From positions 1-48,664 of IMG/VR virus record IMGVR_UViG_3300033407_000891: DNA of 48,664 nucleotides. One strand, given 5' to 3'. Every line of letters begins with the position of its first letter. The stretch's first letter is position 1. Source of the DNA: a virus (taxonomy: Duplodnaviria > Caudoviricetes). Both the position numbers and the translations under genes were made by a program. The notes below the pieces were generated by a model that saw nothing but the letters and a program-made list of their open reading frames with translations, searched no databases and was not told the origin of the DNA. Shown here piece after piece: positions 1 to 45,566 of this stretch.

Positions 1-17
1 TGTGTGTTGTATATAAA

Positions 18-162
18 ATAATCGGCCCGTCTATACCCCTTTCCTGAAGAAAAAATAATAAATTATAATCCCCTAGGGGTACCAAGCGGGCCGATTATCT
101 TACAACCCTGTATTTTTTGGAGGGTATAGACACTAGAACATATGTCCGGTATCTATACCCTC
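18..162. repeat. Cluster of inverted repeats/palindromes at the left end (possible origin or terminal structure)
   Basis: ATAATCGGCCCG (18-29) / CGGGCCGATTAT (87-98) perfect 12-bp IR; palindrome CCCCTAGGGG (70-79); GAGGGTATAGA (120-130) / TCTATACCCTC (152-162) perfect 11-bp IR. Confidence 0.75.
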
Positions 163-2164: not shown

Positions 2165-3730
2165 GTGGTAATTAATAACGACACACAAAAGAAATATTAT
2201 GTGTGTATGCATAAAGGCTGTAGGCGCTCAATCGGTGAGCATGATGTTTATTGTTTTGTGCATAAGTCTTTGTATATTTCTGACTCCTCGGAGTTAGAGA
2301 CTGTTTCTGGAGATTTGGGATGGAATCTTCCTCTTTTTGATTATCAGAAAGAGGATGTAGATTATCTAATTGAAGTTTTGCAGGAAAAAAGAGGCGCATT
2401 TAATTTCAATGAGATGGGTACTGGAAAGACTATTGAAGCTTTAGGTGTAGTTGAGCGTTTGGGTGCCTCTACGGTCCTTATCATTTGTCCCAATGCCCTA
2501 CGTTTTGAATGGCAAAGACAGATTCGCCTCTTCACTCAAGAGGACTCCGCTGTTACTTTGACGGCGGCGAATAAAAAGTGGGACGATTGGGTAGGGAAAA
2601 GATTTAATTTGAAAAACATGACAAGAAAAGAGGATGCGCCTCGTTTCTATATTACTAATTTCGAGACACTCCGAAATCAGGGGTATTTAGGGATTTTGAA
2701 TAGTTTGGATGCTGATTTAGTTATTATGGACGAAGCACATAGAATTAGGACTGTTGATGCTAAACAGGCTTTTGGTGCTAGAGGAGTAAAAGGAAAGAAG
2801 TTTCTGTTACTTACAGGAACGCCTATTGTCAATAGTGCGGGAGATTTATTTACAGGATTTTCTATAGTTTCCCCTGGAAAATTTTCTGTTTATACTCAAT
2901 TCCTGAATGAGTTTACTATGGGTTACGGGTATTCTAGGTTTGGAGTAAAAAATAGGAGTAGATTGTTAGGAATAATTGAAGAGTATGGGATACAGAGGAA
3001 GAAAAAGGATGTATTGAAAGATCTTCCCGATAAACTATTCCGACATATCCCTTTGGAAATGGATAATAGTCAGAGAAAAATTTATGAACAAATGGAAAAT
3101 CAGCTTTTTGTACTGCTAGAGAATGGGGAAGAGTTATATGCAACTAATGTTTTAGCTGCATTAATTAGACTTCGCCAGCTTTGTTTAGAACCTGCAATTT
3201 TGGATGGAATGGGGAATAATATAGGTTCTGCAAAAACCGATTTTCTTATGGATTTTATAGAGGATGACTTAGATCAAGATGAACCTTTGGTGATATTTAC
3301 GACGTTTGAAAAATACGTCTCTTTTATAGAGGGGAGTTTGAGGAAATTCGGAAAAGTGGGACGAATAACAGGATTAGAGAAACCGGAGGAAAGAAGGGAT
3401 GTAGTTTCCTCTTTCCAAAACGGGGATATAAGGTTTTGTATAGGGACTGTACAAGCGATGGGAGAGGGGATAACCTTAACTAGAGCAAATAAGGTATTCC
3501 TGATGGATAGATGGTGGAGCAATGCGAGTAATAATCAAGCGATAGATCGGCTACATAGAATAGGACAAAGGGATAATGTGGAGGTTTTTATTCCGACTAT
3601 TGCAGATAGTATAGATGATAAATTAACAGAAATTTTAGGAAGAAAGGAACAGGATGCTAGAGAATTGGAAATAAGGACTGCTGTTGTGTTAGAGAGAATG
3701 AGAGAAAAGGGACGAAAAGTTATTGTATAG
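2165..3730 (+). CDS. SNF2/SWI2-family superfamily 2 helicase/translocase
   Basis: Motif I EMGTGKT, Ia IICP..LR..W, II DEAH, III LTGTP, V GEGITLT, VI QAIDRLHRIGQ; N-terminal Cys/His motif. Confidence 0.93.
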   Translation: MVINNDTQKKYYVCMHKGCRRSIGEHDVYCFVHKSLYISDSSELETVSGDLGWNLPLFDYQKEDVDYLIEVLQEKRGAFNFNEMGTGKTIEALGVVERLGASTVLIICPNALRFEWQRQIRLFTQEDSAVTLTAANKKWDDWVGKRFNLKNMTRKEDAPRFYITNFETLRNQGYLGILNSLDADLVIMDEAHRIRTVDAKQAFGARGVKGKKFLLLTGTPIVNSAGDLFTGFSIVSPGKFSVYTQFLNEFTMGYGYSRFGVKNRSRLLGIIEEYGIQRKKKDVLKDLPDKLFRHIPLEMDNSQRKIYEQMENQLFVLLENGEELYATNVLAALIRLRQLCLEPAILDGMGNNIGSAKTDFLMDFIEDDLDQDEPLVIFTTFEKYVSFIEGSLRKFGKVGRITGLEKPEERRDVVSSFQNGDIRFCIGTVQAMGEGITLTRANKVFLMDRWWSNASNNQAIDRLHRIGQRDNVEVFIPTIADSIDDKLTEILGRKEQDARELEIRTAVVLERMREKGRKVIV

Positions 3731-5071: not shown

Positions 5072-5072
5072 T

Positions 5073-5225: not shown

Positions 5226-5228
5226 ATC

Positions 5229-5426
5229 TTATTTATAACTCCTTGTATATACTTTATATACTGTTCTCTTAGCTCTTGGATATTTGGTTTTCCACTCCTG
5301 CTTTACAACTCTAGCTTTAAATCCCTGCCTCCTCGCTTTTTCTGCTAACATTTCTGCGTTATTTTTTATTCCTGTCTCTAGCTGTAAATGGTATCTTTCC
5401 CCATTAAGTTTTCTTGTCTTTACCAT
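5229..5426 (-). CDS. Small basic paralog, family A
   Basis: KLNGERY...K..AEMLAEKARRQGFKARVV...YKVYTR. Confidence 0.8.
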   Translation of the reverse strand: MVKTRKLNGERYHLQLETGIKNNAEMLAEKARRQGFKARVVKQEWKTKYPRAKRTVYKVYTRSYK

Positions 5427-5587
5427 TCTCCTATCCTATGTTTTCTTATTTTTTTATCTACAGTTAAAGTTACTCTTTTTCCACACTCAAAACATTCTAT
5501 TTTTTGTCCTGGTTTTCCTGTCTTTACTTCTATTCCACTTCCTGGACAGATTCTCTTATATTTATATCTTTTTGCTTTTGTAGCCAT
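5420..5587 (-). CDS. Small Zn-ribbon protein (55 aa); not in ORF track
   Basis: Own translation ...ICPGSG...ECFECGKRV...RKH. Confidence 0.65.
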   Translation of the reverse strand: MATKAKRYKYKRICPGSGIEVKTGKPGQKIECFECGKRVTLTVDKKIRKHRIGEW

Positions 5588-5590
5588 TTT

Positions 5591-5827
5591 CTAACTCTTT
5601 TTAGGTCTACCTCTTTTCTTAGCAGGTTTTTGCATATATACAGGAGTGGGTTTGTATCCTGTAACAACTAAAATTTCTGCAACACTCTTAGGTTTAGCAG
5701 GTCTGCCTACCCGTCTTTTTGTTGTTCCAACTCCCATTTTCTTTATTTGTGCTATAGTTAACTCTTTAACCTTGCTCCTCTTTCTTCTCCGAGCCATCTT
5801 GTCTTTTGCTCCAGGTGTACGTGCCAT
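5591..5827 (-). CDS. Highly basic AT-hook-like DNA-binding protein
   Basis: RRVGRPAKPK and KKRGRPKK motifs; very K/R-rich. Confidence 0.75.
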   Translation of the reverse strand: MARTPGAKDKMARRRKRSKVKELTIAQIKKMGVGTTKRRVGRPAKPKSVAEILVVTGYKPTPVYMQKPAKKRGRPKKS

Positions 5828-5829
5828 TT

Positions 5830-5982
5830 TTATTTCTTTCCTTTCTTACTAAATTTTCCAGTCTTAACATATATTCTTTTAGGTTTTAAGTTTTTCATGT
5901 CATGTCGATAATATACCTCTGATTTTCCATAATGATTCCTTTTACACTTCTTACAAAAATAGACATCTGTTGATTTTGACAT
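5830..5982 (-). CDS. Small C2H2-like Zn-finger protein, family B (50 aa); not in ORF track
   Basis: YFCKKCKRNH-x9-H. Confidence 0.7.
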   Translation of the reverse strand: MSKSTDVYFCKKCKRNHYGKSEVYYRHDMKNLKPKRIYVKTGKFSKKGKK

Positions 5983-5995
5983 AATCGGACCTTTT

Positions 5996-6181
5996 TTACA
6001 TCTCCACTATCTTTCCATTTTTATCTACGTGAAACTCTCTACCCTTTCCTTCTATTAATACATCATATGTTTTGGGCCAATTTCTCCAAAGGGTTCTTGC
6101 TGATTTCTTAGCTGTCTCTAATGTTTTTCTGTGTCCATATCCATAGATATGTCCCTTTTTAAGGACTTTGACAGTGTACAT
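5996..6181 (-). CDS. Small basic protein, related to 6193-6447
   Basis: YTVKVLKKG...TLETAKKSA...WPK vs YIIKVLRKG...TLGDAILLA...YPK. Confidence 0.7.
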   Translation of the reverse strand: MYTVKVLKKGHIYGYGHRKTLETAKKSARTLWRNWPKTYDVLIEGKGREFHVDKNGKIVEM

Positions 6182-6192
6182 TAAATCTTCCT

Positions 6193-6447
6193 TTATTGTA
6201 TAACTCTTTTTATAAATTTTCCTTTTATTGTGTATTCTATTATTATTTTATGTGGTTTAGGGTAATCTAGTTTGTACATTTTTGCCAATAAAATTGCATC
6301 TCCTAGAGTTACACTTGATGCGGTTTCTAATATTAGTCCTTTCCTTAGGACTTTTATTATATATTTATCCTTAGACCTTCTTTTACTTCTTCTTCTTGAG
6401 GGGGCTGATACATAATTTACATTGAAAATTGAAGGGGGAACTATCAT
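6193..6447 (-). CDS. Small basic protein, related to 5996-6181
   Basis: Shared pattern as above; start overlaps the upstream stop. Confidence 0.7.
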   Translation of the reverse strand: MIVPPSIFNVNYVSAPSRRRSKRRSKDKYIIKVLRKGLILETASSVTLGDAILLAKMYKLDYPKPHKIIIEYTIKGKFIKRVIQ

Positions 6448-6644
6448 TATAATACCCTTACTTTTCCTAAACTAATTACTCCTCTAACTTTTCCTGCTAT
6501 TGTAGGATTAATATGTGTGTGGTAGTGTTCACCTTTATGTTTATTTATTTCTGTTCCATATCCTACTTTATATGGATGACGGTGTGCATGAGCATGATAA
6601 ACTTTTCCATGCTTGTGTCTGTGGAAATGAAAATTAGTCGGCAT
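6447..6644 (-). CDS. His-rich (HxH-repeat) small protein
   Basis: HFHRHKH, HAHAHRH, HYHTH; GGAGG RBS region. Confidence 0.7.
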   Translation of the reverse strand: MPTNFHFHRHKHGKVYHAHAHRHPYKVGYGTEINKHKGEHYHTHINPTIAGKVRGVISLGKVRVL

Positions 6645-6984
6645 TTCTTTCTCCCTCCTTAATTGTTTTTACTACATATTTCCATAATTTTCTTCTTAAG
6701 CTAAACCAAGAAGTCCAAATCCATCCAGTAAACATCATTACTCCAAGAGACATAAATCCCCAAGCTAAATTTATATTATTTTCTTGATTTTTGCTCCATT
6801 GAGGTAGTTGGATTGGTTCATCTAGGGACAATGAGGGATTAGATATTAATATAGAAATCATGGGTTTCACTAGCCACACGAACGATACTCCAAAAATTAG
6901 TATATCACTAAAGAGTCCTAATAATTTCTCTCCCTTAATATCCCCTTTCAAAATCCAATTTAATTTCCTCAAATCCTTTTTCAA
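6634..6984 (-). CDS. Two-TM membrane protein
   Basis: Two hydrophobic segments, basic termini. Confidence 0.7.
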   Translation of the reverse strand: MKKDLRKLNWILKGDIKGEKLLGLFSDILIFGVSFVWLVKPMISILISNPSLSLDEPIQLPQWSKNQENNINLAWGFMSLGVMMFTGWIWTSWFSLRRKLWKYVVKTIKEGERNAD

Positions 6985-7413
6985 TTAAAAAAATCCTCCC
7001 AATAAATCTACTCCTGTTCTTGTTGCTGCTTCTGCTTTAGATTCTTTATAAGGACTTTTTTTTGGACTTTTTGAGTTTATTTTCTTTTTACCTGTTTTCT
7101 TCTTAGCTTTTTGTGCAGACACCCCTGATATTGCATCCATTCCCCTAGCAAATCCTCCAGCTAATTTTTTAGCTAGTGCTTTGTCCCCTTCAGTTATTCT
7201 AAATGGCCCTTTTCCATTTTTTTTACGATACTTTTCCATCTTCTTTCTTGTATCTTCTAACTGTGCTCTTTGTTGTGCTACAGTTAATTGTTTTTCTGCT
7301 AATTTTTGTTCCCTGGCAATCTTAGCTAACTCATCCTCAATTTTTTGGTCTTTACTTCTTCCGTTTAAACCCATCGCTCTAGCTACTCTCGTCCCTGCTT
7401 TTCTAAATACCAT
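6985..7413 (-). CDS. Basic coiled-coil protein
   Basis: Heptad-like segment and Lys-rich C-terminus. Confidence 0.75.
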   Translation of the reverse strand: MVFRKAGTRVARAMGLNGRSKDQKIEDELAKIAREQKLAEKQLTVAQQRAQLEDTRKKMEKYRKKNGKGPFRITEGDKALAKKLAGGFARGMDAISGVSAQKAKKKTGKKKINSKSPKKSPYKESKAEAATRTGVDLLGGFF

Positions 7414-7591
7414 TCCTATTTCTCTCTTTCTCTTTCTCTATTAAATATTTATCTTCTGTTTGTTTAATATGTCTATGACTATGTGAGTGTGTTCTTACTT
7501 TAGTTTTAGGATGATCGTGAACATGCGTATGCCAGAATGTTCTCTCTCCACCCAAAAATTGGTGCTCATGACCGTGACTAAAAACGGGCAT
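7403..7591 (-). CDS. His-rich (HxH-repeat) small protein
   Basis: HGHEH, HTHVHDH, HSHSHRH; AGGAG RBS. Confidence 0.72.
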   Translation of the reverse strand: MPVFSHGHEHQFLGGERTFWHTHVHDHPKTKVRTHSHSHRHIKQTEDKYLIEKEKERNRNGI

Positions 7592-7611
7592 CTTTTCTCC
7601 TTCTTATATTT

Positions 7612-7887
7612 TTACTTCTTATTGAGTTTTAATTTAGGGTTAGTATAAATTATCCATATTACTATTTCTTTTCCTATAGAAAACATAGTATGAGGTATCG
7701 TTATAGCTTTCTTCATCATAATAATTGTTTTGTACTTACTTTTTTCTAGTTGTCTAGCTTTATTTCTTGAGTTGGTATATTTTCTGTATATGTGTTCAGT
7801 TCTATAATAAATTTGATTTAATATTTTTATTTTATTTTGAGCTGTTACCTCGAAAAAATCTGTTTTTTCATCTTTAGCTACCCTCAT
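7612..7887 (-). CDS. Basic protein, divergent family A member
   Basis: AGGAG RBS; C-terminal half loosely follows family A pattern. Confidence 0.65.
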   Translation of the reverse strand: MRVAKDEKTDFFEVTAQNKIKILNQIYYRTEHIYRKYTNSRNKARQLEKSKYKTIIMMKKAITIPHTMFSIGKEIVIWIIYTNPKLKLNKK

Positions 7888-7909
7888 TTAAATCTCCTTT
7901 ATATATTAA

Positions 7910-8071
7910 TTATCTTGAATATATTTTATACCCTCTTACTGTTTTTACTATTCTTATTTTTCCACCCTCTTTTTTTATCTTATTGGCAAGATTTTTAGTA
8001 TTCTTTTTATTTGTACGAAATCCTACTAAGAAGTAATCTAAACCATTGAATTTCTTTGTAAGTCCAAACAT
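7910..8071 (-). CDS. Small basic paralog, family A (53 aa); not in ORF track
   Basis: MFGLTKKFNGLDY...TNKKNTKNLANKIKKEGGKIRIV...YKIYSR. Confidence 0.75.
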   Translation of the reverse strand: MFGLTKKFNGLDYFLVGFRTNKKNTKNLANKIKKEGGKIRIVKTVRGYKIYSR

Positions 8072-8082
8072 AAAGGAATCCC

Positions 8083-8280
8083 CTAATTATAATATCCTCT
8101 TTTATAAGGCGTAGCATACACACAAAACTTTCCGTTTTTACTAATTACTCTGGCGTAGTGTCCCATATCTCTTTGTTTCTTTGCTAATTGTTCAGCTTTA
8201 GTTCTGGATGCAAATTCTGGTTTTTGGAGAAGATATGCTTTTCCTTTAAATTTCTTTGTCTTTATTGGTAATTCGTGCAT
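8083..8280 (-). CDS. Small basic paralog, family A
   Basis: TKKFKGKAY...KAEQLAKKQRDMGHYARVI...CVY. Confidence 0.8.
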   Translation of the reverse strand: MHELPIKTKKFKGKAYLLQKPEFASRTKAEQLAKKQRDMGHYARVISKNGKFCVYATPYKRGYYN

Positions 8281-8375
8281 TTTCCTGTTCTCTTTTTATC
8301 TTTATATATTCACTAAACCCTTGTATTCCATATTTTCTCTTTAGTTCTTCTATTAACTTTTTATCTTTATTCATT

Positions 8376-8597
8376 TTATTTTATCAGTATATACACACTG
8401 TATATTTCTTTTGGTTGCATAGAAATTTTTCTTAGAGGATTAACTTCTTTTACTACTCTCGCTAAATGTCCTCTAAATCTTATATTTTTTGCTACATCCG
8501 TAGCGGCTCTTTTAGTAGACCAATTTGAATGTAGAGAATATTTCTTACCCCCTGGAGAAAATCTTTTAGTTTTAGAACCCGCTCTAATTAATAACAT
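8376..8597 (-). CDS. Small basic paralog, family A
   Basis: TKRF..GGKKY...TKRAA..VAKNIR.RGHLARVV...YSVY. Confidence 0.78.
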   Translation of the reverse strand: MLLIRAGSKTKRFSPGGKKYSLHSNWSTKRAATDVAKNIRFRGHLARVVKEVNPLRKISMQPKEIYSVYILIK

Positions 8598-10395
8598 TTT
8601 TCCTCCTCCTTAAACTTTCTTCTAGTTGATATTCAAATAATAATTCCTGTGTCCCCCACTGTTCACTCTTAAACACTTCTTCTAATAAATCGCCTCCTCT
8701 AACTGGGGGGTCTAACCATAACCTTTTTCTATCTTTTCCAATACTTACCATTAAATCTGGTGTTGCTGTCTCTTCTACTGCCCTACTAAAATCTCCCAAT
8801 CCAAAAGCCTCACAAATTTGTAATCTTCTAGGATTCATTTCTATTCCATAAACTCTATCTCTAGGTTTATTTTTTATTCTTTCTACTATTGGGATGTGAT
8901 GATGGGGAAGATTGCTCATTAAGGAACCTGCTATAGTTATGTCTTTATATTCATTCCATTTTAATTGTCCAATACTGTAGGTGCTTTCTTTTTTATTTAT
9001 TGGAAGGGTGGTTGTAAATCCATCCACAGTTATTGTTACTACTTCATTTTTAGATTTTAGTAGTAATTCAGCGATTCGTATTTTTATATTAGTCATTACT
9101 ATACAGGCATAAATTGGATTGAAGGTGGGGGATATTTCCCAAAAAGTCTGCTTTTCTTCCTCTGTATCCTCTACTATTTTTTCTATTCTCTGCAAAAACT
9201 TTCCTACAACTCTTGCTGATGCTTTCTTTAAAAGATAATTAGTTAGAGCACTTATCCTTTTTATGTCTTCGTCTTCTGATTCTTGTTCTAATTCTATTGC
9301 TTTAGCTCTAAGTTTAGCTATTGCTGCTACTGTTCTTCCAAAAGGTTTTATCTTTCTTTTTACAAAAAATTCCCAACCACCGATAACTTCTACTTCTCCT
9401 ATTTTTCTCCTTTTTATAAATTCTACTTCTTGTTTAGTTATATATCCTATCCACTCCCCGTGAGGAGCTAAAAGTTTTTCTTTGTATCTTATAAGTATTG
9501 GTGAAGGAGTATACTTTTTTAATTTTATTTGGGCTATATAGAAACCGTAGGTTGCATTAAAATTGTGTTGTGTAGTCTGTATCCACTCTCCACAACTATT
9601 ATCTATATGATAAAGATTTGCAATTTCACTAGGATATGCTGCATTAATATCATAATCATATAATTTCTCAAAAGTTCCCTGTTGATACATTTCAATCCAA
9701 GGAGCATGAATACAATTATACGCTATAGAATAAACATCCTGAGGAATTGTATTTGCTCCAACTTTTACTCGCTTATAATCCTGATATAAAAATTGTTTAG
9801 TCAAAACTGTTGGAGTAGAAAAATCTCCGTTTTGATAAGGATAGAGTTCTCTAGTCGCTTTATTTATTTTTTCTGCCAATTCTTTATATGCTTCTGCTCC
9901 CTCTTTTTCTATTTGTAATTCATTTAATATTTTTCGGTCTTCTCGTTTGTCAAACCAATTTCCCAATGCAAAAATTCTTATAGTCTTCTTATTAAAAGTA
10001 ATAGTTATTTTAACTGTAGGTATATACCAAATTCTGAAAATATATTCATTTAGTCTTCCAAAATCTGTTAAATCCTTACACTTTTCTTCCCCTAACATTT
10101 TTACGATAGATTCTAAGACATAAGGATAATAAGTAACAAAACTTGCGTTTTTGTTTTGTATATTCTCCTCTAGGAAATATATTACTTCTTTTAGGGATTC
10201 GGGACGATATAGAATTTTTCCAGTAGAAAGATATAATGAAATCAAAGAGCCATCAGGTAAAACTCCTGCATCTAGCCCTATAATTTCTTCTGTCTTGATT
10301 CCTGTTGCTACTAAAATATTGTCAACATCTTCAAGAGGAAGCTCCTCTATTGGAGGATTGTTAGGGGGTTCATCTACTAGGATTTGTTTTTCCAT
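8584..10395 (-). CDS. Divergent family B DNA polymerase, protein-primed type; exonuclease motifs degenerate
   Basis: Motif A YDINAAYP; degenerate motif B KKASARVVGKFLQ; P..A..(V/I)...K/R segment FNPIYACIVMTNIK; motif C ITVDG; IGQLKWNE; no DxE at the expected ExoI position. Confidence 0.78.
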   Translation of the reverse strand: MEKQILVDEPPNNPPIEELPLEDVDNILVATGIKTEEIIGLDAGVLPDGSLISLYLSTGKILYRPESLKEVIYFLEENIQNKNASFVTYYPYVLESIVKMLGEEKCKDLTDFGRLNEYIFRIWYIPTVKITITFNKKTIRIFALGNWFDKREDRKILNELQIEKEGAEAYKELAEKINKATRELYPYQNGDFSTPTVLTKQFLYQDYKRVKVGANTIPQDVYSIAYNCIHAPWIEMYQQGTFEKLYDYDINAAYPSEIANLYHIDNSCGEWIQTTQHNFNATYGFYIAQIKLKKYTPSPILIRYKEKLLAPHGEWIGYITKQEVEFIKRRKIGEVEVIGGWEFFVKRKIKPFGRTVAAIAKLRAKAIELEQESEDEDIKRISALTNYLLKKASARVVGKFLQRIEKIVEDTEEEKQTFWEISPTFNPIYACIVMTNIKIRIAELLLKSKNEVVTITVDGFTTTLPINKKESTYSIGQLKWNEYKDITIAGSLMSNLPHHHIPIVERIKNKPRDRVYGIEMNPRRLQICEAFGLGDFSRAVEETATPDLMVSIGKDRKRLWLDPPVRGGDLLEEVFKSEQWGTQELLFEYQLEESLRRRKNVIN

Positions 10396-10402
10396 ATTAT
10401 TT

Positions 10403-10585
10403 TTACTTTTCTCTCCCCCAAATGCGATAAAAGGTAGTAGTGTATATACCTCTAATTTCTGTTATTCTGGAAAATCCTATTCTCCCCTTTAAACTTTTAG
10501 CATAATCCCTTGCTTGTTTCTTATTTGTGTATTCTCCGAATAGAATATATTTCTTTCCGTTGAATAATTTGGTTTGTAGGAGCAT
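10403..10585 (-). CDS. Small basic paralog, family A (recent duplicate of 11107-11319)
   Basis: Nearly identical protein LQTKLFNGKKYILFGEYTNKKQA...WGREK. Confidence 0.82.
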   Translation of the reverse strand: MLLQTKLFNGKKYILFGEYTNKKQARDYAKSLKGRIGFSRITEIRGIYTTTFYRIWGREK

Positions 10586-10595
10586 TTTATTTTTC

Positions 10596-10826
10596 CTAAT
10601 TCCAAAATTCTTTTATTGGTATAGAGTTATATACTTCTTTTTTTTCTTTCCTCTCTAAATTTCCTATTCCCACAAATCCAATGCCAGGGATATGACTTCT
10701 TTTTTCTTTTCTTTTAGGGGGTCTATGTTGCGTATATATTTTTGTTCCTGGAAGGTGTCTTACACCACACTTTCTACACATATAACCTTTTTTATTTTCT
10801 TTTCTAGGCGTTACGCTTTTCTTCAT
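10596..10826 (-). CDS. Small C2H2-like Zn-finger protein, family B
   Basis: YMCRKCGVRH-x9-H. Confidence 0.72.
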   Translation of the reverse strand: MKKSVTPRKENKKGYMCRKCGVRHLPGTKIYTQHRPPKRKEKRSHIPGIGFVGIGNLERKEKKEVYNSIPIKEFWN

Positions 10827-10884
10827 AAAATATACCTTGCTTTTGCCATTTTACTTCTCCCTTATTGGAGGATTATTCGGAGGC

Positions 10885-11107
10885 TCATCGACTAGAATTT
10901 GTTTTTCCATCTAATCTTTTCCAACTTCCATCTCTTGTGCTTATCCATCTATCTTTAATATCTTTAATTAATGTTATTGTTATCCTTTGAGGAAAGGAGC
11001 GATATATAGTAATTCTTTTAATATACTCAGAGGGGAAAGCTTTAGGTTTAGAGTCCCTGTAATATTTTTGTATTTGGGGGGGGGGGAAGTTCAGAAAATC
11101 TAGACAT
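10885..11107 (-). pseudogene. ORF interrupted by a C11 homopolymer frameshift
   Basis: ATG overlaps the upstream stop (TAATG). With 11 C it stops after 19 codons; with 10 C it reads ~73 aa to TGA at 10885. Confidence 0.5.
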
Positions 11108-11319
11108 TATTTTTCTCTCCCCCAAACTAGATAAAAAGTAGTATTATATCTACTTCTTACATTTCCCCAAAGATAAGGTCTATCTCTAATTTCTGTTATT
11201 CTGGCAAAGCCCATTCTACTCTTTAAACTTCTAGCATAATCTTGTGCTTGTTTTTTATTTGTATATTCTCCAAATAGAATATATTTTTTTCCGTTGAATA
11301 GTTTAGTTTGTAGGGGCAT
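11107..11319 (-). CDS. Small basic paralog, family A
   Basis: Duplicate of 10403-10585 with a ~10-aa insertion. Confidence 0.82.
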   Translation of the reverse strand: MPLQTKLFNGKKYILFGEYTNKKQAQDYARSLKSRMGFARITEIRDRPYLWGNVRSRYNTTFYLVWGREK

Positions 11320-11690
11320 TACGCTGCACTCCTTATCCCAAAATACTCAGCGTACCATTGAATAATCTGTTCATCCATAGGTCTACTTAAGTAACGTTCC
11401 CATAATTCATTGTATATTCCACTTCCTTCTTCTGTACTGCTCCCCGTTATTCCTCTTCTTCTTAAATTTGCAATTAATCTTCTTCTGTTCCTTGTCATTC
11501 CATTAATAAATGTTCTATTTCTACTTACAGCAATATTAAATCTTGCTAACTCATCTGCTTCCTCTGGAAGAAATCCATTTCTTGTCCAGAAATTATATCT
11601 TGCATCATAATATCTAAGTATCTTTCTTCGTTGTCTTTGTACTCTTGAAAGGTCTATCCTTATTCTTCTTCCACGAGGGCCTTGAGTCAT
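11319..11690 (-). CDS. Arg-rich basic protein
   Basis: AGGA RBS; very Arg-rich; stop overlaps next start. Confidence 0.78.
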   Translation of the reverse strand: MTQGPRGRRIRIDLSRVQRQRRKILRYYDARYNFWTRNGFLPEEADELARFNIAVSRNRTFINGMTRNRRRLIANLRRRGITGSSTEEGSGIYNELWERYLSRPMDEQIIQWYAEYFGIRSAA

Positions 11691-11691
11691 T

Positions 11692-12141
11692 TTATATTTC
11701 CTTTAGGAGTAGCTGTCTAATTTTTGGATAAGCCCTTCTCTCTACTTCATTAACAACATCAAAAAATTCACTCAAATTAATTTCAAACTCATCAAAAGCA
11801 TTATCTCCAATCTCAATATATCTTTCTACAATTTCATCTAATCTCTCGTTTGGCTTTTTTCTGTACTCTCTTTCTATCTCTGCAACTAATAATTTTAACC
11901 CAAAGGCTTCTTGATTTACTATCTCTTTGGGGAGTTCTATTTGGGGCCGCAATCTCTCTAACTCTTCTGCTAACCCTCTTGTAAATTTTCCTCCGTTGTG
12001 CCACTTTTCTAATTCAGTTTTTAATGTCCTTAAATCCTTTTTTCCCCAACTAATTATTTTAGGATTATTCCTAATAAATCTTTTTATCCATGTCCTGTAG
12101 CTATCGTAGGACATCCCTTCTATTTTACGATAAATAGGCAA
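11692..12141 (-). CDS. Hypothetical helical protein
   Basis: 149-aa ORF, TTG start with GAGG RBS. Confidence 0.75.
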   Translation of the reverse strand: MPIYRKIEGMSYDSYRTWIKRFIRNNPKIISWGKKDLRTLKTELEKWHNGGKFTRGLAEELERLRPQIELPKEIVNQEAFGLKLLVAEIEREYRKKPNERLDEIVERYIEIGDNAFDEFEINLSEFFDVVNEVERRAYPKIRQLLLKEI

Positions 12142-12144
12142 AAT

Positions 12145-12297
12145 TTACCTCACATAAACTCCATAAAATTTCTTTTTTCCGGCTTTTCCAGTAATTACCC
12201 TTACTTCTTTTCTCTTTCCTATATATCTAATTGCTAATTTCATAGCATCCCCTTTTCTTGTAAGGGGTTTTTGATGGACTCTATCGTAATTCATCAT
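12145..12297 (-). CDS. Small basic paralog, family A (50 aa); not in ORF track
   Basis: ...TRKGDAMKLAIRYIGKRKEVRVI...FYGVYVR; first gene after promoter 12327-12355. Confidence 0.7.
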   Translation of the reverse strand: MMNYDRVHQKPLTRKGDAMKLAIRYIGKRKEVRVITGKAGKKKFYGVYVR

Positions 12298-12326: not shown

Positions 12327-12355
12327 AGTATACTCTATCTGACTCCCCTTGTCAA
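12327..12355 (-). promoter_or_regulatory. sigma70-type promoter driving the PolB/basic-protein array
   Basis: TTGACA-17bp-TATACT. Confidence 0.85.
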
Positions 12356-12375: not shown

Positions 12376-12561
12376 TTATGTAACTGTTACCTCTATCCTC
12401 CCTTTTCTAACCTTCTCAACAAAATCCTTCTCTAACTCTTTCACTAATTTTCGTCCCATCTTTTCACTTATAGGACACCCCTCTAAATTAATCCTATCTC
12501 CCAAACTCTCCTTAATTAATCTTTCCCTATTTTCTAAAAACCATCTAATAACTTTACTCAT
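12376..12561 (-). CDS. Hypothetical protein
   Basis: Overlaps upstream gene end; typical composition. Confidence 0.65.
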   Translation of the reverse strand: MSKVIRWFLENRERLIKESLGDRINLEGCPISEKMGRKLVKELEKDFVEKVRKGRIEVTVT

Positions 12562-13066
12562 TTTTTACTTTAACCCAACCTTCCTTTACTCCTTCAAGAA
12601 TATTTCTTGTTCTTTCATTAGTCATAATTTCGAAAATGTGGTTTACTCTTCGTGCTGTTAACCCTCTAGTTTCTAATCCCCAATCCTCTTCTTCTATAAA
12701 TAAAATTGCTCCATCTCGCTGATATTGTTCTATTAATTTATTATAATTTTTACTTACATAATCTCTAGCTATTCTTGTTCCTTCTACAGGTCTTACCTGC
12801 AACAATAAACTTTCAAAAATATAATAACGATTCTCATTATCCAGGTCTTCTGGAATATCCCTCCAATTCCACAATCCTAATAATTTCCTAACTAACTCTG
12901 TCCCATCATCTCCTTCTAACAATTCATCCCCTAGTGCTTCCCATAAAATATTTTTTATTAGTTTTATCTCGTTTACTGTCCATATTTCTTTTAATTCTTC
13001 CCACTTTTTTATATATTCATTTGCTTTCTGATGTAGGTCGTTATCTTCGATTGAAAAATTTGGCAT
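12554..13066 (-). CDS. Hypothetical protein (170 aa)
   Basis: Long ORF in the minus-strand operon. Confidence 0.75.
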   Translation of the reverse strand: MPNFSIEDNDLHQKANEYIKKWEELKEIWTVNEIKLIKNILWEALGDELLEGDDGTELVRKLLGLWNWRDIPEDLDNENRYYIFESLLLQVRPVEGTRIARDYVSKNYNKLIEQYQRDGAILFIEEEDWGLETRGLTARRVNHIFEIMTNERTRNILEGVKEGWVKVKNE

Positions 13067-20309: not shown

Positions 20310-20930
20310 TTATCTTGTGAACGTAGCCTTCTTCAAATACTGGGGGATTCCAGGCTTTTCTCTAGTATTATATAGAGGGAATATTTCTTTTGCATCATAA
20401 GTTAAAGTACTCCATTCCTTATATTTTCTGTTATAAATTTTTACTCTACATAAACCTGTTTTTTCATCTAAATTTGGATGTAATTCTAAATGAATATATC
20501 TTCTAACTTTCCTATCAATATCAGTTTCTTCAGGAGAAACTAAATATAAATCTGTAGCTCCTTTTCGTATTGTAGTAGCATAGGCTACAATAATCTGATT
20601 CACTAAAGAAGCAGAACGGTTAGAACCTGCTGTCAAATAGAATTCATCAAAACCGACTGTGCAGTTATCTAACTCGTTGTCTTCCATCATCCTAAGAAAT
20701 CTTCTTAAATCTACGTTACTACGGATAGCTAAAAATTCAGGGTCTTCAACTATATACCCTAATTCCCTCATTTCTTCCTTAGAAGGAAAATCTAAATGGA
20801 AATCAGAATATATTTTCTTTCCTAACAACCAATCTTCAAATAGCATTTTAGCACAAGTTACAGTTTTGCCTTTTCCTAAATTCCCTCCTATATAAACCAT
20901 CTTTCCGCCAATAAAATCTTGCATAACCAT
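20310..20930 (-). CDS. Zot/pI-like (FtsK-HerA superfamily) morphogenesis ATPase
   Basis: Walker A GNLGKGKT, IYSD, Walker B VGFDE, IRKG..DLYLVS, Arg-finger region IDRKVR; no C-terminal TM. Confidence 0.82.
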   Translation of the reverse strand: MVMQDFIGGKMVYIGGNLGKGKTVTCAKMLFEDWLLGKKIYSDFHLDFPSKEEMRELGYIVEDPEFLAIRSNVDLRRFLRMMEDNELDNCTVGFDEFYLTAGSNRSASLVNQIIVAYATTIRKGATDLYLVSPEETDIDRKVRRYIHLELHPNLDEKTGLCRVKIYNRKYKEWSTLTYDAKEIFPLYNTREKPGIPQYLKKATFTR

Positions 20931-29859: not shown

Positions 29860-30060
29860 TTACCCTCTACTAGAAAAAGCTCCAGAAGCTAATCTCCACA
29901 GTAACACAGCCGCCAAAATGACGGCCATAACCGAGAAAATAGCCGTAACGCCATTAGCGCCTGTAACCGCTGCAAACTGCGTGATAATAGTAGGGAATAA
30001 TGCAGAAGCAACAACAGCCACTAACAAAACACCAATAACCCAGTTACCGATTTTGTCCAT
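29860..30060 (-). CDS. Putative major capsid protein paralog 2 (two-helix hydrophobic, spindle-virus VP1/VP3-like)
   Basis: Two hydrophobic helices joined by FPTIITQFAAVTGANG; basic C-terminus; strong GGAGGT RBS. Confidence 0.72.
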   Translation of the reverse strand: MDKIGNWVIGVLLVAVVASALFPTIITQFAAVTGANGVTAIFSVMAVILAAVLLWRLASGAFSSRG

Positions 30061-30087: not shown

Positions 30088-30294
30088 TTACTTACTACGA
30101 CCAAATGCACCACCTGCAATCTTCCATAGAAAGACAGCAGCTAAAACTACCGCCATAACAGAGAAGATTGCCGTAATACCATTAGCTCCTGTAACTGCCG
30201 CAAATTGAGTTACAATTGTTGGGAATAATGCACCCCCAATAACTGCAATCAATAAAAGAGCAATTACCCAGGTAGCCACAGAATTTCCTTTCAC
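30088..30294 (-). CDS. Putative major capsid protein paralog 1 (two-helix hydrophobic, spindle-virus VP1/VP3-like)
   Basis: Closely similar to 29860-30060 (LFPTIVTQFAAVTGANGITAIFSVMAV); GGAGGTGA RBS, GTG start. Confidence 0.72.
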   Translation of the reverse strand: MKGNSVATWVIALLLIAVIGGALFPTIVTQFAAVTGANGITAIFSVMAVVLAAVFLWKIAGGAFGRSK

Positions 30295-31461: not shown

Positions 31462-31490
31462 AGTTTACCTTATCCCGTCCTGATTGTCAA
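31462..31490 (-). promoter_or_regulatory. sigma70-type promoter upstream of the lipoprotein/capsid/morphogenesis operon
   Basis: TTGACA-17bp-TAAACT. Confidence 0.75.
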
Positions 31491-34054: not shown

Positions 34055-36700
34055 TTAATGAATCCCTCTGCTAACTAAAAATTCCTCAATTTGTTTAGAC
34101 TTACTAAACATATTTCCCCAATTATCCCCAACCTTAGTATCCACTTTGAAAGGAACTTTAGCAAATTCCTTCCCTAGATATTTCTCCCCAGTACCTACCA
34201 TAACTTCATCAATAACCTTCATACAATTATCAAAACTATCTTCTGGAACCTCAAACATTATTGAGTCATGAACAGGAAACATACAATGAAAACCGTATTT
34301 TTCCTCTAAAGGCTCAAGGTCTACAATGGATAAAAGGTTAAGGTCACTGGCTAATGATTGTATTTCAAAATTACAGCCTTGATTTTCCAAACGGCTTATA
34401 TTATAATCTGTAACTATAGGAAAGCGCCTTCTCCTTCCTAAAACAGTCTCTATCTCTCCATTATTAATTATTTTTTCCAACTGCCTCTTAGAGTATCCTT
34501 TAGCTTCGGGGTATTGTTTATCTAATTCATTTAACCATCTTTGAGCTTCATTTAAAGTAACATTATGCTCCAAAGCTACAGCATAAGCAGTTCTATTATA
34601 TAATCTTCCAAAAACAGTATACTTAGCCCTCTTTCTGAAAAGAGTATAAATTTCTTCATCCTCTTTTATACCTAATTCCATTCCTTCTCTAACCTTTAAA
34701 TACCTATCTCCGAACAATACAATAGAATTTTCATGGTGTAAATCCCTTCCAGCTCTGAAAATTTCTATCATATTTTGGTCATTTGTTACACAAGCATAAA
34801 TTCTTAATTCAAATTGCGCTTGGTCTTTTTCAACTAAAACATATCCAGGACGTGCTTTGAAAAAAGATCGAATCAAAAGATTATGAACAATATTCATAAT
34901 ACTAGGATTTCTTGCTGCACCTCTTCCTGTAACCGTAGCAGCTAGAGAGATAGAAGGATGGATACAAGAATCTTCCCTATAAATATCGTCAACTAATCCC
35001 TTGACATAAGTATTCTGGAGTTTTGTTAAGGAGCGATAATCTAGTAGGTAGCGGAGCATTTGTAATTCTCTAGGAAACTGTCCCATTATTTCCTCTGGAA
35101 TATCTGCTCTTCCAGAAACATTTTCATCCTTAATCTTATCTATATAAACCTCCCCAACCTCATTTTCAACATCTTTTCCGAGTCTAGCAACTAACCCATT
35201 CAATATATTTAAGGTTACAGCCTTATCAAGTCCAGCACTACCTACTGGACGCGTAAGTCCAAAGCCTCCATCAATTTTATTTCCAAATAAAATTTTCTGT
35301 ACCTGTTGGGTAGAACCCAATTGTACATAATTTCGAGTTAGTTTAGAGGCTTTCTCTTCTGTATACTCTATCTGCTCCTTTAAAATATTATTGACTTCTA
35401 AAAGCCTTCTTACATCAATATAAACTCCGCGCATCTGACTCTTAACAAATCTCCTACCTACAGGCATTAAAACAGTTTCATATAACTTTTTATCGGGTTC
35501 CTCCCACAAATTTTTCTCCATATATTCATCAATTAACTTAGTATAGTAAGAATCATAACCATTATAAAGAAGTAATTTATCCTTTGGAATTTTAGTATAA
35601 TCCCTCTTTTTTTTGCTTCTCCCTACATATGTATAAGGTAAAACTTCCTCTTCCCAGTTAGGAATAAAGAAAGTAGAAGTTGCAATTTCTTTTAAGGAAT
35701 GAGAGCCACCCGTTGCAGCGTATCCTTCTCCTTCTTGTCCACCAGAACCTATTGTAGATTCATCAGTAGAATAATGTTTTAAGAGAGTATCATCAGAAAT
35801 ACTTACCTGGAATCCAAGAAAAACCTTTCCTAATTCCTTATTCAAAAATATAACATCAAATGCAATCCCATTATGCCAAACAGAAGGATTATCCCTCAAG
35901 ATAGAAGCTAGAAGAAAGAGAGTTTCCTCAGAAAGAACAGTCCAATCCAAGGAAATAATAAAATCATTCTCATCACAAATAGAAATAGAAATTATATTTC
36001 CAGGATAAGCAGTTAGAGAGTCAGTCTCAATATCACACCAAATTTTTCCAGGGGTTAAAGAGGAAAGTAAGTTATAAGCATCAATATCAGTAAATGCAGA
36101 ATGGATAGGAGGAATATTATCTCCAAACCTATCATCTAAATAATTCTGCTTCAAAGCAATCAAAGTCCTAGCGAATCCAATAAATTCATTAAATGCTTGA
36201 CGCATAATAAAAGATGGATGCAAAAGAGGAAGCAAAGGCTGAGTAAAATAAGGAGATTGAAGTAGCTCCCCCTTAACTTTAGTTATTTGAAGTTTAGAGT
36301 TATTAGTAACAGCGTGCAAAGCCTCCGCGCCCAAAGCAACAACGACACGAGGAGAAAAAGAATTAACTTCTTTTATCAAACGGTCTCTACACAAATTACT
36401 TGCAGTTTCGTAATCATAATCATTTCCATTAGGTTCACAAGGAACAGCATTTGTGTAAGCTATCTTATTTCTATTTATACTTGCTATTTCTTCTGCCCCA
36501 TGCAGTAACTGTCCAGAATCCCCAACAAAAGGAATTCCTTTATTTACCTCATTATACCCAGGAGATTCTCCAACAAAAAGAATATCAATATCAACGGGAC
36601 TAGAAGGCAAGCCAGAACCGCAAGACTCAGAATATGGAGGAACCAATTTCTGAGACTTTAAAGGACAAGAATCGCACTTTGCACCAGGAAGTTTTTCCAC
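34055..36700 (-). CDS. polA: Family A DNA polymerase with N-terminal family-4 uracil-DNA glycosylase domain (SPO1-type)
   Basis: UDG: CxxCPL, VGESPG, FVGDSG, TNAVPC, HPS; 3'-5' exo DIET, HN..FD, YNGYD; Pol motifs DQAQFELR, RAK..FG.LY, VHDS. Confidence 0.93.
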   Translation of the reverse strand: MEKLPGAKCDSCPLKSQKLVPPYSESCGSGLPSSPVDIDILFVGESPGYNEVNKGIPFVGDSGQLLHGAEEIASINRNKIAYTNAVPCEPNGNDYDYETASNLCRDRLIKEVNSFSPRVVVALGAEALHAVTNNSKLQITKVKGELLQSPYFTQPLLPLLHPSFIMRQAFNEFIGFARTLIALKQNYLDDRFGDNIPPIHSAFTDIDAYNLLSSLTPGKIWCDIETDSLTAYPGNIISISICDENDFIISLDWTVLSEETLFLLASILRDNPSVWHNGIAFDVIFLNKELGKVFLGFQVSISDDTLLKHYSTDESTIGSGGQEGEGYAATGGSHSLKEIATSTFFIPNWEEEVLPYTYVGRSKKKRDYTKIPKDKLLLYNGYDSYYTKLIDEYMEKNLWEEPDKKLYETVLMPVGRRFVKSQMRGVYIDVRRLLEVNNILKEQIEYTEEKASKLTRNYVQLGSTQQVQKILFGNKIDGGFGLTRPVGSAGLDKAVTLNILNGLVARLGKDVENEVGEVYIDKIKDENVSGRADIPEEIMGQFPRELQMLRYLLDYRSLTKLQNTYVKGLVDDIYREDSCIHPSISLAATVTGRGAARNPSIMNIVHNLLIRSFFKARPGYVLVEKDQAQFELRIYACVTNDQNMIEIFRAGRDLHHENSIVLFGDRYLKVREGMELGIKEDEEIYTLFRKRAKYTVFGRLYNRTAYAVALEHNVTLNEAQRWLNELDKQYPEAKGYSKRQLEKIINNGEIETVLGRRRRFPIVTDYNISRLENQGCNFEIQSLASDLNLLSIVDLEPLEEKYGFHCMFPVHDSIMFEVPEDSFDNCMKVIDEVMVGTGEKYLGKEFAKVPFKVDTKVGDNWGNMFSKSKQIEEFLVSRGIH

Positions 36701-37419: not shown

Positions 37420-38469
37420 CTAATAAACTTTCGGAGGATTAATCCGTAACACATCTTGCTTGCTTATATATTTCCTGTAAACTTCATTCTCTTCTAACTT
37501 AAATTTATTAAAATCAAAATTATTTTTAGGAAAAACAGACGAAGAAACTGATAAAGTCGCGCTATCTAAAGAAGCGAGAAAACCCCTAGTCTTATACTTT
37601 AAAAGAAATCCCTGTAACTTCCCTTTAGCTTCCTCTTCTCTTCGCTCAAATTCTTTTCTCTTTCCGTTAGTCTCTGCATATTCCATTAAAATACCTAAAA
37701 TTTCCCTTCCCTCTTCCCCTAAATTCCCAATATCTAACAGTCCCTCATTTAATTTACTAAAATCCCTTCTCAAATAGTTAACTGGACAAAACATACAGGG
37801 AAATCCATCTAAATTATTCCCACAGTCGGGAGGATTATCCTCTTTACAAACTTCCTCAACCAACCATTTAGCATAATCCCCAATATCTCTACCCAAAAAA
37901 TCCTTATCCTCTAAGACTAACTCATCTATCCACTCATTATTATTGGTATTAACATAAACTAAAATAGCTCCTGCTAATTCATGCGGGGATAAAATAGAGT
38001 GAAGATGCTTAGAAGATAAATAAACCTGCATTTGAGCATATGCAGCTTTTTCATTTCCGTCTTTAAAACCATTATTTACAAAGTTATTAAATCTCCAATC
38101 AGATACAGCCTTCACATCCAAAACATAAGGTTTCTCATTCCACTCTACTAATAAATCTAGTCTTCCTCTTTTCCATATATAAGGTAAATCAAAATTAACG
38201 AAAAGTTGAGAAGAGCTAGGAATTATAGATATACCTGGAATTTTAGGCAATAATTCAAATTCTACCCATCTCTCAAAAACTTCTCCTACAGTAGCTCTAA
38301 GTCCAAATCCTTCTGTTTCTATTCCTATTTCTCCTGTAGAGAGAACATTATTATTCTTCATCCAGAAAAGAGTAGGACACTGAAAAATATTAGAAGCAGG
38401 AATATACTTTCCTGACTGCACATTTCTTTCTTGTTCCCTGGAATCAAAAGATTTACGAAGAAAACCCAT
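37420..38469 (-). CDS. PD-(D/E)XK exonuclease (Cas4/RecB-like)
   Basis: S....CP, GRLD..., DVK, Q.Q.Y, C..CP motifs. Confidence 0.8.
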   Translation of the reverse strand: MGFLRKSFDSREQERNVQSGKYIPASNIFQCPTLFWMKNNNVLSTGEIGIETEGFGLRATVGEVFERWVEFELLPKIPGISIIPSSSQLFVNFDLPYIWKRGRLDLLVEWNEKPYVLDVKAVSDWRFNNFVNNGFKDGNEKAAYAQMQVYLSSKHLHSILSPHELAGAILVYVNTNNNEWIDELVLEDKDFLGRDIGDYAKWLVEEVCKEDNPPDCGNNLDGFPCMFCPVNYLRRDFSKLNEGLLDIGNLGEEGREILGILMEYAETNGKRKEFERREEEAKGKLQGFLLKYKTRGFLASLDSATLSVSSSVFPKNNFDFNKFKLEENEVYRKYISKQDVLRINPPKVY

Positions 38470-42341: not shown

Positions 42342-42349
42342 ATTTAAAA

Positions 42350-42678: not shown

Positions 42679-42694
42679 AAAAACTCCTCTTATT

Positions 42695-44287: not shown

Positions 44288-44719
44288 TTACGCTGCCACC
44301 GCATTATTTACAATATCCACAGTACCAGGTCTCGCCCAAGCAACAATATTTGCTCTAGGCTTTCCTGCATACTCCGTAATTTCTACCTTAGCACAAACCT
44401 GCTTTCCAGAAAACTCACGGTCATCAATTTCCACATTTGCAAGAGCAATCTTACGCTCCTCATCATCTTCTGGAAAATCATGACCAAAAGCCTCTAGCAT
44501 AGCAGCAACATAAAATGCTGACTCCTCACCCATAGCCTGTTCATTGAAAAGCTTAATATTATCTGAACCAACAACAATAGATTCCGTATAAAGAGTTGTA
44601 GTCTCCTTAGTAGCACCCCTACCAGTACGAAATTCAGACTTTTCTACATTAACGAGATTCCAACCCTCATTAGGAAGCTCACGGACACCAGAAGAAAGAT
44701 TCAAACTGATCTTAGGCAT
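44288..44719 (-). CDS. Phage ssDNA-binding protein (DUF669-like)
   Basis: LPNEGW..V.V, GK.V...V...EY.GKPR.NI pattern; downstream of AAA_24 gene; AAGGAG RBS. Confidence 0.7.
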   Translation of the reverse strand: MPKISLNLSSGVRELPNEGWNLVNVEKSEFRTGRGATKETTTLYTESIVVGSDNIKLFNEQAMGEESAFYVAAMLEAFGHDFPEDDEERKIALANVEIDDREFSGKQVCAKVEITEYAGKPRANIVAWARPGTVDIVNNAVAA

Positions 44720-44753: not shown

Positions 44754-45566
44754 TTATTTGCGTGTAGTTTCTAATTTTTGTTCTTGTTCGTGTCCATTTA
44801 CACTCACCTTTCTTAGATAACTAAAAACTTTATCCATTGTGGGCATTTCCAAAACTATTGGAAGTTGTCCACTCCTATCTTTTCCTTCTGCTGCTTCTGT
44901 AATCTGTGTTGTAACCCAGTTTTTATAACTTTTCTTTCCCTGACTATACTCAATATCACCTTCAAAATGTAAAACTAAATCAAAAACTCCAACCATGTCA
45001 ACGGAAGCATTTTCCGTCAGAAAGGGACGAAGAATCGTACGAGATACTGCGTTTCCATCATCATCAAATTGTCCAAATCTCCTCTCTTTAGCATTTATCC
45101 CCAAATGAATAGGTAAGGAATTCAAATCACGAAACAAAGTAGAAAGAAAATCTAAAACCTGTCCATGTTCATCCCAAGTAGCTTTAGGTTTACTTCCCTT
45201 TAATTTATTCAGATATTGTCTAGCAAATTCGGATATAGAATCAATCCCAATAAATTTAAAAGGTAAATCAGAAGAATCTAAAAGCTTAGTAATGATAGCA
45301 CGAGTAGCAGAAGAAACATCAGAATAATTATTTATATGCATAAATTCAGGCATATAAACTACAGAAATAGAACCAGGAGAACGTAACAAAGAAGATTGCT
45401 GCCCACGTTCAAAATCCAAAATAAGAGAAGGATTAGTAAAAACACAATCAGCAGAGGATGAAAGAAATTGAGACTTTCCAGAACCGGAACGCCCATAATT
45501 GACTATATGCCAATATTCAAAAGCAAAAGAATTTACCGGAAGTTTTAGGGAGCCTAGCTGAATCAT
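44754..45566 (-). CDS. AAA_24 / Sak4-like ATPase (ssDNA-annealing recombinase)
   Basis: YGRSGSGKS, LDFERG, IDSISE, FDLV, GKDR motifs. Confidence 0.85.
   Translation of the reverse strand: MIQLGSLKLPVNSFAFEYWHIVNYGRSGSGKSQFLSSSADCVFTNPSLILDFERGQQSSLLRSPGSISVVYMPEFMHINNYSDVSSATRAIITKLLDSSDLPFKFIGIDSISEFARQYLNKLKGSKPKATWDEHGQVLDFLSTLFRDLNSLPIHLGINAKERRFGQFDDDGNAVSRTILRPFLTENASVDMVGVFDLVLHFEGDIEYSQGKKSYKNWVTTQITEAAEGKDRSGQLPIVLEMPTMDKVFSYLRKVSVNGHEQEQKLETTRK

Follow-up and report, generated by a model that had tools for sequence, protein, structure and literature searches.

In one published account (PMC4889955), viruses that replicate with a DNA polymerase of family B that is primed by a protein (pPolB) have genomes below about 50 kb, carry few other replication proteins and are set apart from systems based on PolA. 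The Halspiviridae have a linear genome of about 14.5 kb and a pPolB as their sole polymerase. In contrast, the virus sequence considered here (IMG/VR record IMGVR_UViG_3300033407_000891, positions 1 to 48,664; the window refers to this whole stretch) is 48.7 kb long and encodes a PolA as well as a family B polymerase (PolB; 8584..10395, minus strand). The enzymes of His1 (Halspiviridae) and His2 (Gammapleolipovirus) resemble this PolB in having a DINSAYP-type motif A and a motif C with a single Asp. However, they keep exonuclease (Exo) motifs I-III and the motif B signature KxxxNSxYGK, and their genomes, of 14-16 kb, have terminal repeats and belong to viruses of haloarchaea. The genome in the window is 48.7 kb or larger, its PolB has lost the Exo motifs, a second polymerase is present and there are sigma-70 promoters. 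Protein-primed and PolA-based replication are usually treated as separate, yet here one conserved lineage carries both. A literature search, with subscription papers mostly outside its coverage, returned no account of an Exo-less pPolB together with PolA in such viruses. We propose that this PolB is a dedicated terminal-protein primase that hands off to PolA or to a host polymerase, and we put the chances of this being right at about even.

The open reading frame (ORF) in question encodes 603 aa and is, by fold and ancestry, a PolB of the protein-primed type whose enzymatic activity is predicted. As a single sequence it matches nothing in Pfam, NCBIfam or the PDB sequences, no viral locus and one phage protein weakly, and its single PHROG polymerase match is also weak (E 9e-5). 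Seven homologues at 22-32% identity gave a first alignment, of whose eight members five match DNA_pol_B_2. The profile made from that alignment found 1060 cluster representatives at E-values up to 1e-30, the best 150 of which were listed. With the family profile the best match is phi29 (E 2.8e-8), and the alignment extends to phi29 TPR1. An AlphaFold model based on 133 aligned sequences has a pLDDT of 93.4. In a viral structure library the His1 polymerase comes out on top (TMq 0.77, E 2e-26), followed by tectivirus and ABV polymerases, and in the PDB phi29 polymerase ranks first with RNA-primed PolBs behind. The TPR1 span between motifs A and B is 135 aa long (phi29, 128; His1, 131). The TPR2 span measures 28 aa (32 in phi29, 15-26 in the relatives listed) and is modelled as a hairpin at residues 403-421, with strands at 403-410 and 415-421. 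The thumb and the KRxW motif are retained along with both insertions. The sequence-only reading had assigned the gene to the protein-primed type from its motifs, and the comparison with the phi29 and His1 structures bears this out.

The sequence-only reading had also described the motifs correctly. Motif A, YDYDINAAYP (9631..9660, minus strand, as for the other two motifs), has catalytic Asp249 and steric-gate Tyr254 and is kept in the Exo-less group. Motif C, TITVDG (9019..9036), has catalytic Asp458. Motif B, KKASARVVGKF (9196..9228), departs from KxxxNSxYG in that Lys390 and the Gly are present while the Asn, Ser and Tyr are substituted, with Ala for Asn and Val for Tyr. Aligned to 104 Exo-intact relatives, the protein lacks all three exonuclease motifs, namely the DxE of Exo I, Exo II and the YxxxD of Exo III, and most of its Exo III region is deleted.

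These changes are not peculiar to the window. After 8 near-duplicates or fragments were left out, 158 relatives could be aligned. Exo I-III and KxxxNSxYGK are retained in 104 of them and the Exo motifs are lost in the other 54. Within the Exo-less group the motif A Asp and the motif C Asp are each found in 54/54 proteins, a constancy that is somewhat inflated because the profile search favours proteins retaining those motifs. The steric-gate Tyr is kept in 53/54 and the motif B Lys in 51/54. In contrast, the motif B Asn survives in 6/54 Exo-less proteins versus 100/104 intact ones. The motif B Tyr is present in 19 of the 54 and replaced by Trp in 23. The motif C Thr is found in 4/54, versus 99/104 in the intact group, and Val takes its place in 48/54. 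What of the first Asp of motif C, which is missing from the window PolB? It is absent across the whole family and also from His1, His2, Toil, ABV and the reference for the primer-independent polymerase of pipolins (piPolB). For this reason we do not count its absence towards the erosion, and we rejected it as a sign of decay. The derived change in motif C is Thr to Val.

Is the gene simply decaying? The sequence-only reading called it degenerate, which holds for the Exo motifs and motif B. It does not hold in the sense of decay, because the residues needed for chemistry are kept, dN/dS (the ratio of nonsynonymous to synonymous substitution rates) is 0.07 and there are 54 like proteins. An open frame, that same ratio and those similar proteins rule out a pseudogene or artefact. 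The L043 copy is 96% identical, and comparison with it gives a dN/dS of 0.074, so the check on homologues advised by the sequence-only reading indicates purifying selection. The ratio is 0.05 and 0.13 in two further Exo-less pairs, and 0.08 and 0.12 in intact pairs. However, selection is not even along the protein. In the comparison with L043, residues 1-205 have a dN/dS of 0.031 and the remainder 0.132, so selection is strongest on the N-terminal third, where Exo is lost, and its structure matters for that reason. This would suit a protein that has lost catalysis and acts as a scaffold or binds DNA ends, as would the heavy alteration of motif B in this sub-lineage; herpesviral UL8 is reportedly an inactivated PolB. 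Set against this are the two catalytic Asp residues in 54/54 proteins, the Tyr in 53/54 and the Lys in 51/54, even allowing for the bias of the profile search, and we regard a dead protein as very improbable.

Polymerase-domain trees made with FastTree and IQ-TREE agree that the family is sister to His1/His2. The piPolB reference (only one was included) groups beside tectivirus-type enzymes, apart from the PolB family. The fold matches and the phylogeny together rule out a piPolB or an RNA-primed PolB, the two placements that would have told against the sequence-only reading. The trees agree less well on how the Exo motifs were lost. FastTree yields one Exo-less clade, comprising 54 of 158 proteins in a first tree and 52 of 138, at a support of 0.917, in the polymerase-domain tree. 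Two basal pairs, L074/P0121 and L086/P0027, lack the Asn although their Exo motifs are intact. IQ-TREE, with 52 taxa, nests the Exo-intact L074 among the Exo-less proteins (support 68-71) and moves the long-branched L001 beside His1/His2. Only a wider clade of 24, which takes in the forms with Exo but no Asn, reaches a support of 98. With L074 and L001 where IQ-TREE puts them, a single Exo loss is not established. The alignments and trees suggest stepwise erosion of a pPolB within the lineage. The forms that look intermediate, L074:14-1792 and L086:656-2371, have intact Exo motifs, no motif B Asn and the small gene Y described below, and L086 also has a Sak4 gene. A separate oddity is L059:9641-12137, where an Exo-less PolB is interrupted by an ORF resembling a NUMOD3 homing endonuclease, suggesting an intron.

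If PolB primes on a protein, which protein? The candidate is gene Y (11319..11690, minus strand), separated from PolB by three small ORFs. It encodes a helical protein of 123 aa with a basic N-terminal part and an acidic C-terminal part, and its dN/dS is 0.12. It belongs to a family of basic proteins of 100-180 aa encoded upstream of Exo-less PolBs, with the motif R-x-x-L-x-x-x-G-F-x-x-x-E-A. A profile seeded with 15 copies chosen by eye recovers held-out copies in L048, L050, L052, L055, L059, L070, L073 and L074, and a larger profile adds L065. Gene Y is found at 21/34 Exo-less loci and, with near-duplicates left out, at 16/16 of those with at least 2 kb of upstream sequence; these counts include L043, a close relative of the window. 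The 13 loci that lack it have at most 1350 bases upstream. L074 and L086, in which Exo is intact and the Asn lost, have it beside their PolB as well. In Exo-intact relatives there is usually a basic ORF of 120-190 aa directly upstream of PolB. Two further observations concern this region. A duplication (10342-10586 versus 10857-11320) copies the 5' end of PolB and separates gene Y from it, an arrangement that differs in L043. Farther upstream lies gene X (12554..13066, minus strand; 170 aa, dN/dS 0.10), look-alikes of which were recognised by eye upstream of PolB in L044, L048 and L060.

Complex prediction pairs PolB with the gene Y protein at a score of 0.69 (0.70, 0.69 and 0.58 in separate runs), while the best of three controls scored 0.00. 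At least 52% of contacts agree between runs and the pLDDT of the partner is at least 60. The mark applied to such predictions is reached by 116/157 solved complexes and by 2/215 mismatched pairs, counts that are only rough with the alignments used. The prediction could partly reflect memory, because the complex of phi29 polymerase with its terminal protein has already been solved, although gene Y does not match that terminal protein in fold. On the PolB side the predicted interface takes in residues 232-236, 307, 457 (adjoining Asp458), 489-493 and the thumb at 548-569 and 583-599. The model therefore has the gene Y protein binding at the thumb and the TPR1 edge, beside Asp458. On the other side the interface includes residues 97-110, 113 and 117 of gene Y. 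This segment has a net charge of -4, against +16 for residues 1-82, and contains Tyr100, which is conserved in 31/39 sequences. According to PMC4974454, the priming domain of the phi29 terminal protein is likewise acidic, sits in the duplex cleft and contacts the thumb and TPR2. Thus, phi29 and the window have in common TPR1, TPR2, a thumb and an acidic partner segment in the primer cleft, the last of these by prediction for the window. They differ in that phi29 polymerase proofreads, primes and elongates, and in that the contacts predicted for gene Y are mostly with the thumb and few with TPR1. From its co-occurrence, predicted binding and conserved Tyr, gene Y is a terminal-protein candidate.

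Low-fidelity polymerases typically lack Exo and have a relaxed motif B, and archaeal PolB2/Dpo2 is a model for a polymerase with an error-prone gap-filling or lesion-bypass role. The window PolB has both features and keeps its catalytic residues. Perhaps, then, it fills gaps or bypasses lesions on DNA primers, with gene Y as a regulator or inhibitor. However, complex prediction puts gene Y in the primer cleft beside Asp458, and the ancestry of PolB lies among protein-primed enzymes. We give this explanation little probability.

The second polymerase is a fusion of uracil-DNA glycosylase (UDG) and PolA (34055..36700, minus strand). Family matches and motifs identify it, with Exo I-III and polymerase motifs A, B and C all there, so the sequence-only reading was right to speak of a complete PolA alongside PolB; it is likely to be the elongating polymerase. 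UDG-PolA is encoded in 3/3 Exo-less virus records searched (G001, G002 and G003) and in 0/2 Exo-intact records. The window and G001-G003 further have in common the Sak4 gene, the probable single-stranded DNA-binding protein (SSB), an ATPase of the extrusion type and His1-like two-helix capsid proteins, of which there are one or two. Family matches in the window further include an SNF2-type SF2 helicase (2165..3730, plus strand), a Sak4-like AAA_24 annealing protein (44754..45566, minus strand) and a Cas4/RecE-like exonuclease (37420..38469, minus strand). The probable SSB (44288..44719, minus strand) has no family match and is named from its position after Sak4 in relatives. Genes for ribonucleotide reductase and dCTP deaminase are also in the window. 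As the sequence-only reading had noted, no primase or replicative hexameric helicase turned up: a search of 82 ORFs against Pfam and PHROGs found neither a primase nor DnaB, and a six-frame search for DnaB_C was empty. Beside PolA in L012-L014, L035 and L052 are genes resembling queC, queE, queD and folE, which suggest 7-deazaguanine DNA modification; the window is without them.

Could PolB nevertheless be the main replicase, primed by gene Y and working without proofreading, with UDG-PolA confined to repair, uracil removal or recombination? The full-length polymerase domain, with a TPR2 hairpin and a thumb in the model, is compatible with this, as are strong purifying selection and the predicted binding of gene Y. 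However, the genomes in which Exo is gone and motif B has eroded measure 36-88 kb, more than the contigs of most intact relatives (8-14 kb), and a PolA with proofreading motifs accompanies such a PolB in 3/3 records. We consider a main replicase quite unlikely.

The role of a primase with hand-off is favoured because residues for chemistry are kept while those for proofreading and base-pair checking are lost, gene Y is predicted at the active site, the PolA has proofreading motifs and no primase was found. In this proposal PolB would bind the gene Y protein at the predicted site and attach the first nucleotide or nucleotides to one of its hydroxyl residues at the genome ends, with Tyr100 and Tyr116 as candidates. 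The products of PolB would be short, the genome would be linear with protein-capped 5' ends, and the UDG-PolA of the virus, or else a polymerase of the host, would carry out bulk synthesis. Two variants can be pictured. PolA, together with the SF2 helicase and the SSB, might start elongation at each end. Alternatively, the primer might serve only to patch ends that internally started forks leave, much as in Streptomyces.

The left contig end is of interest here. It has two long imperfect palindromes (1..160) in a zone of low depth, and from folding and read depth it is a possible telomere. The first 200 bases fold much better than their shuffled versions (z -5.1 and -6.8), with the lowest values among 49 tiles. 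Read depth in a possible source run is 3.8-6 over positions 1-641 versus 36.5 inside, a 6- to 10-fold drop, and no piece extends left of base 1, although this depth evidence comes from one non-independent run of contigs. These features fit a physical, possibly protein-blocked end. Among 34 whole contigs tested, terminal inverted repeats were found in the Exo-intact relatives L078, L079, L080 and L115 (L079 and L080 are near-identical), and a subterminal one in L016, which is Exo-intact too. As a side observation, L078, L080, L115, L087 and L083 are small linear genomes with an intact pPolB, a terminal-protein candidate bearing a helix-turn-helix and non-spindle structural genes, and belong to unclassified viruses or elements.

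Several observations weigh against a primase with hand-off. The window has no direct or inverted terminal repeat (first 3 kb versus last 5 kb), and none of eight whole Exo-less contigs, which are fragments, has terminal repeats. The other contig ends tested have no such palindromes and none falls below z -3.2. CheckV puts the completeness of the record at 27%, and a primase could lie outside it for that reason; the same protein is also encoded on a contig longer by 199 bases. The gene Y structure has no fold match to the phi29 terminal protein nor to anything in the PDB, and its profile does not match His1 ORF11, His2 ORF15, Toil gp08 or ABV ORF163. Compared with the upstream ORFs of relatives bearing terminal inverted repeats, it gives a profile-profile E of 0.026 and a probability of 1.9% over one short motif, and one held-out match between gene Y and upstream ORFs went from E 7.5e-4 to 0.12 with the larger profile. 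TPR2 and the thumb are retained though a pure primase could dispense with them. Loss of the motif B Tyr may impair templated initiation too, judging by phi29, where Tyr390 helps to build the base-pair pocket and checks the nascent base pair (PMC4974454). Finally, genes for a phage replisome-organiser and a DnaC-like ATPase lie close to the Exo-less PolB of L065 (15.5 of 25.6 kb read), so that PolA as a universal partner is not established. These genes are at L065:5535-6972; in L066, another Exo-less PolB genome, the same ATPase is preceded by a different ORF (L066:1518-2940). Thus, one part of what the sequence-only reading proposed, an ancestral pPolB replicase kept for terminal-protein priming, gains from the pPolB ancestry and from a co-conserved gene Y predicted to bind. 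The other part, hand-off to PolA, is a proposal, and since one Exo-less sub-lineage has an initiator and a loader of lambdoid type, PolA may be one partner among others.

Some of these points suit another idea better, namely that PolB and gene Y form a repurposed nucleotidyl-transferase whose adduct does not start replication. It might instead cap DNA, pilot it for extrusion or entry, or act as a counter-defence decoy, with replication left to PolA or to host forks plus recombination. Template-sensing residues are lost (motif B Asn and Tyr, motif C Thr) while chemistry is kept, and the pair persists beside differing replication modules, PolA in G001-G003 and an initiator with a loader in L065. 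Sak4, the Cas4-like nuclease and the probable SSB would permit recombination-dependent replication, and the window is without terminal repeats. However, no primase was found in the window, TPR1, TPR2, the thumb and KRxW are all retained, and the left end is palindromic with low depth. We judge a repurposed transferase unlikely, though of the alternatives to a primase with hand-off it is the one we take most seriously.

What kind of virus carries this system? Profile matches identify two paralogues of a two-helix major capsid protein, the first His1 ORF21-like (29860..30060) and the second adjacent to it (30088..30294), both on the minus strand. A profile of 12 capsid candidates finds the held-out His1 ORF21 at E 8e-10. 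Eight further ORFs of His1 and His2, among them six membrane proteins, are not matched at E 1. His1 ORF21 is presumably the major capsid protein, although the database record labels it hypothetical. A P-loop ATPase (20310..20930, minus strand) has relatives that match the Zot-type virion-extrusion ATPase family. The window is thus a probable spindle-shaped virus by its gene content. Genes for a spindle-type capsid and an extrusion ATPase occur in some Exo-intact relatives (L016, L019, L103), and unrelated structural genes in others; L065 has three capsid paralogues.

As to the host, the window has eight sigma-70 consensus promoters where 1.15 +/- 1.08 are expected by chance. One (TTGACA-17-TATACT; 12327..12355, minus strand) lies upstream of the gene run holding gene Y and PolB, and would drive it if functional. 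The others are at 556-584, 961-989, 31462-31490, 45634-45662, 47879-47907, 48063-48091 and 48379-48407. Together with a LuxR-type helix-turn-helix regulator encoded in the window and with PolA, these sites point to a bacterial rather than an archaeal host. Six matches to metagenome-assembled genomes are to short contigs in mixed taxa and are uninformative on this question. A motif, TTTTCTATAAGGGTAT / CTATACCC, recurs beside consensus promoters (1006-1051, 45668-45713 and 47912-47957) and is a possible operator or origin-binding site; shorter cores of it occur near 31, 122, 153, 1250, 12366 and 31507. PolB itself is flanked by about 20 tiny Lys/Arg-rich ORFs (4898-8597 and 10403-12297), several paralogous and one with a weak SPOR match, which are possible DNA-binding or host-takeover proteins. 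A membrane glycosylation cluster (15464-19744 and 38472-39170; GtrA-like, GT2 and two multi-pass proteins) is echoed in relatives and is likely to glycosylate the virion or host surface. Four tRNA genes (Leu-TAA, Gln-TTG, Arg-TCT and Lys-TTT) lie in 42257-43131.

Taken as a whole, the picture would be of a widespread lineage of large (30-90 kb) bacterial spindle-shaped viruses in which protein-primed replication has been split. The pPolB would have become a terminal-protein primase with a new family of terminal proteins of 100-180 aa, and an acquired UDG-PolA or the host replisome would elongate. We put forward this composite picture tentatively, as appreciably less probable than the primase role by itself. 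If true, it would mean that a virion type regarded as archaea-specific also occurs in bacteria, and it would provide a viral hybrid of protein-primed and conventional replication that has gone past the genome size ceiling of pPolB systems. The sigma-70 promoters already raise the question of whether spindle-shaped viruses infect bacteria. PolB and gene Y offer a two-protein system for asking which PolB residues serve priming and which elongation. A new terminal-protein family, if that is what gene Y represents, might also be a tool for linking DNA to protein.

How does all this compare with other known systems? The piPolB of pipolins has a YDYD-type motif A and an xTDG-type motif C like the window PolB. 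However, the reference used, pSE-12228-03, which we take to be a pipolin accession, is 1109 aa long, Exo-intact and groups with tectivirus-type enzymes. Wyrdviruses, the spindle-shaped viruses of Asgard archaea, are like the window in having one or two major capsid protein paralogues, an extrusion-type ATPase and exchangeable replication modules that include pPolB, according to 10.1101/2021.07.29.453957. Unlike it, they reach about 20 kb and have archaeal hosts; the same text states that spindle-shaped viruses have not been observed in bacteria, and the string 'inactivat' does not occur in it. The closest functional analogue, and a working precedent, is the Tap-Tpg pair of Streptomyces. At palindromic telomeres, according to PMC4513846, Tap places a 13-nt primer on the terminal protein, and a different polymerase then extends this primer. 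That account does not call Tap a pPolB, and Tap serves cellular chromosomes and plasmids rather than a virus; the likeness to the window PolB drawn here is one of function.

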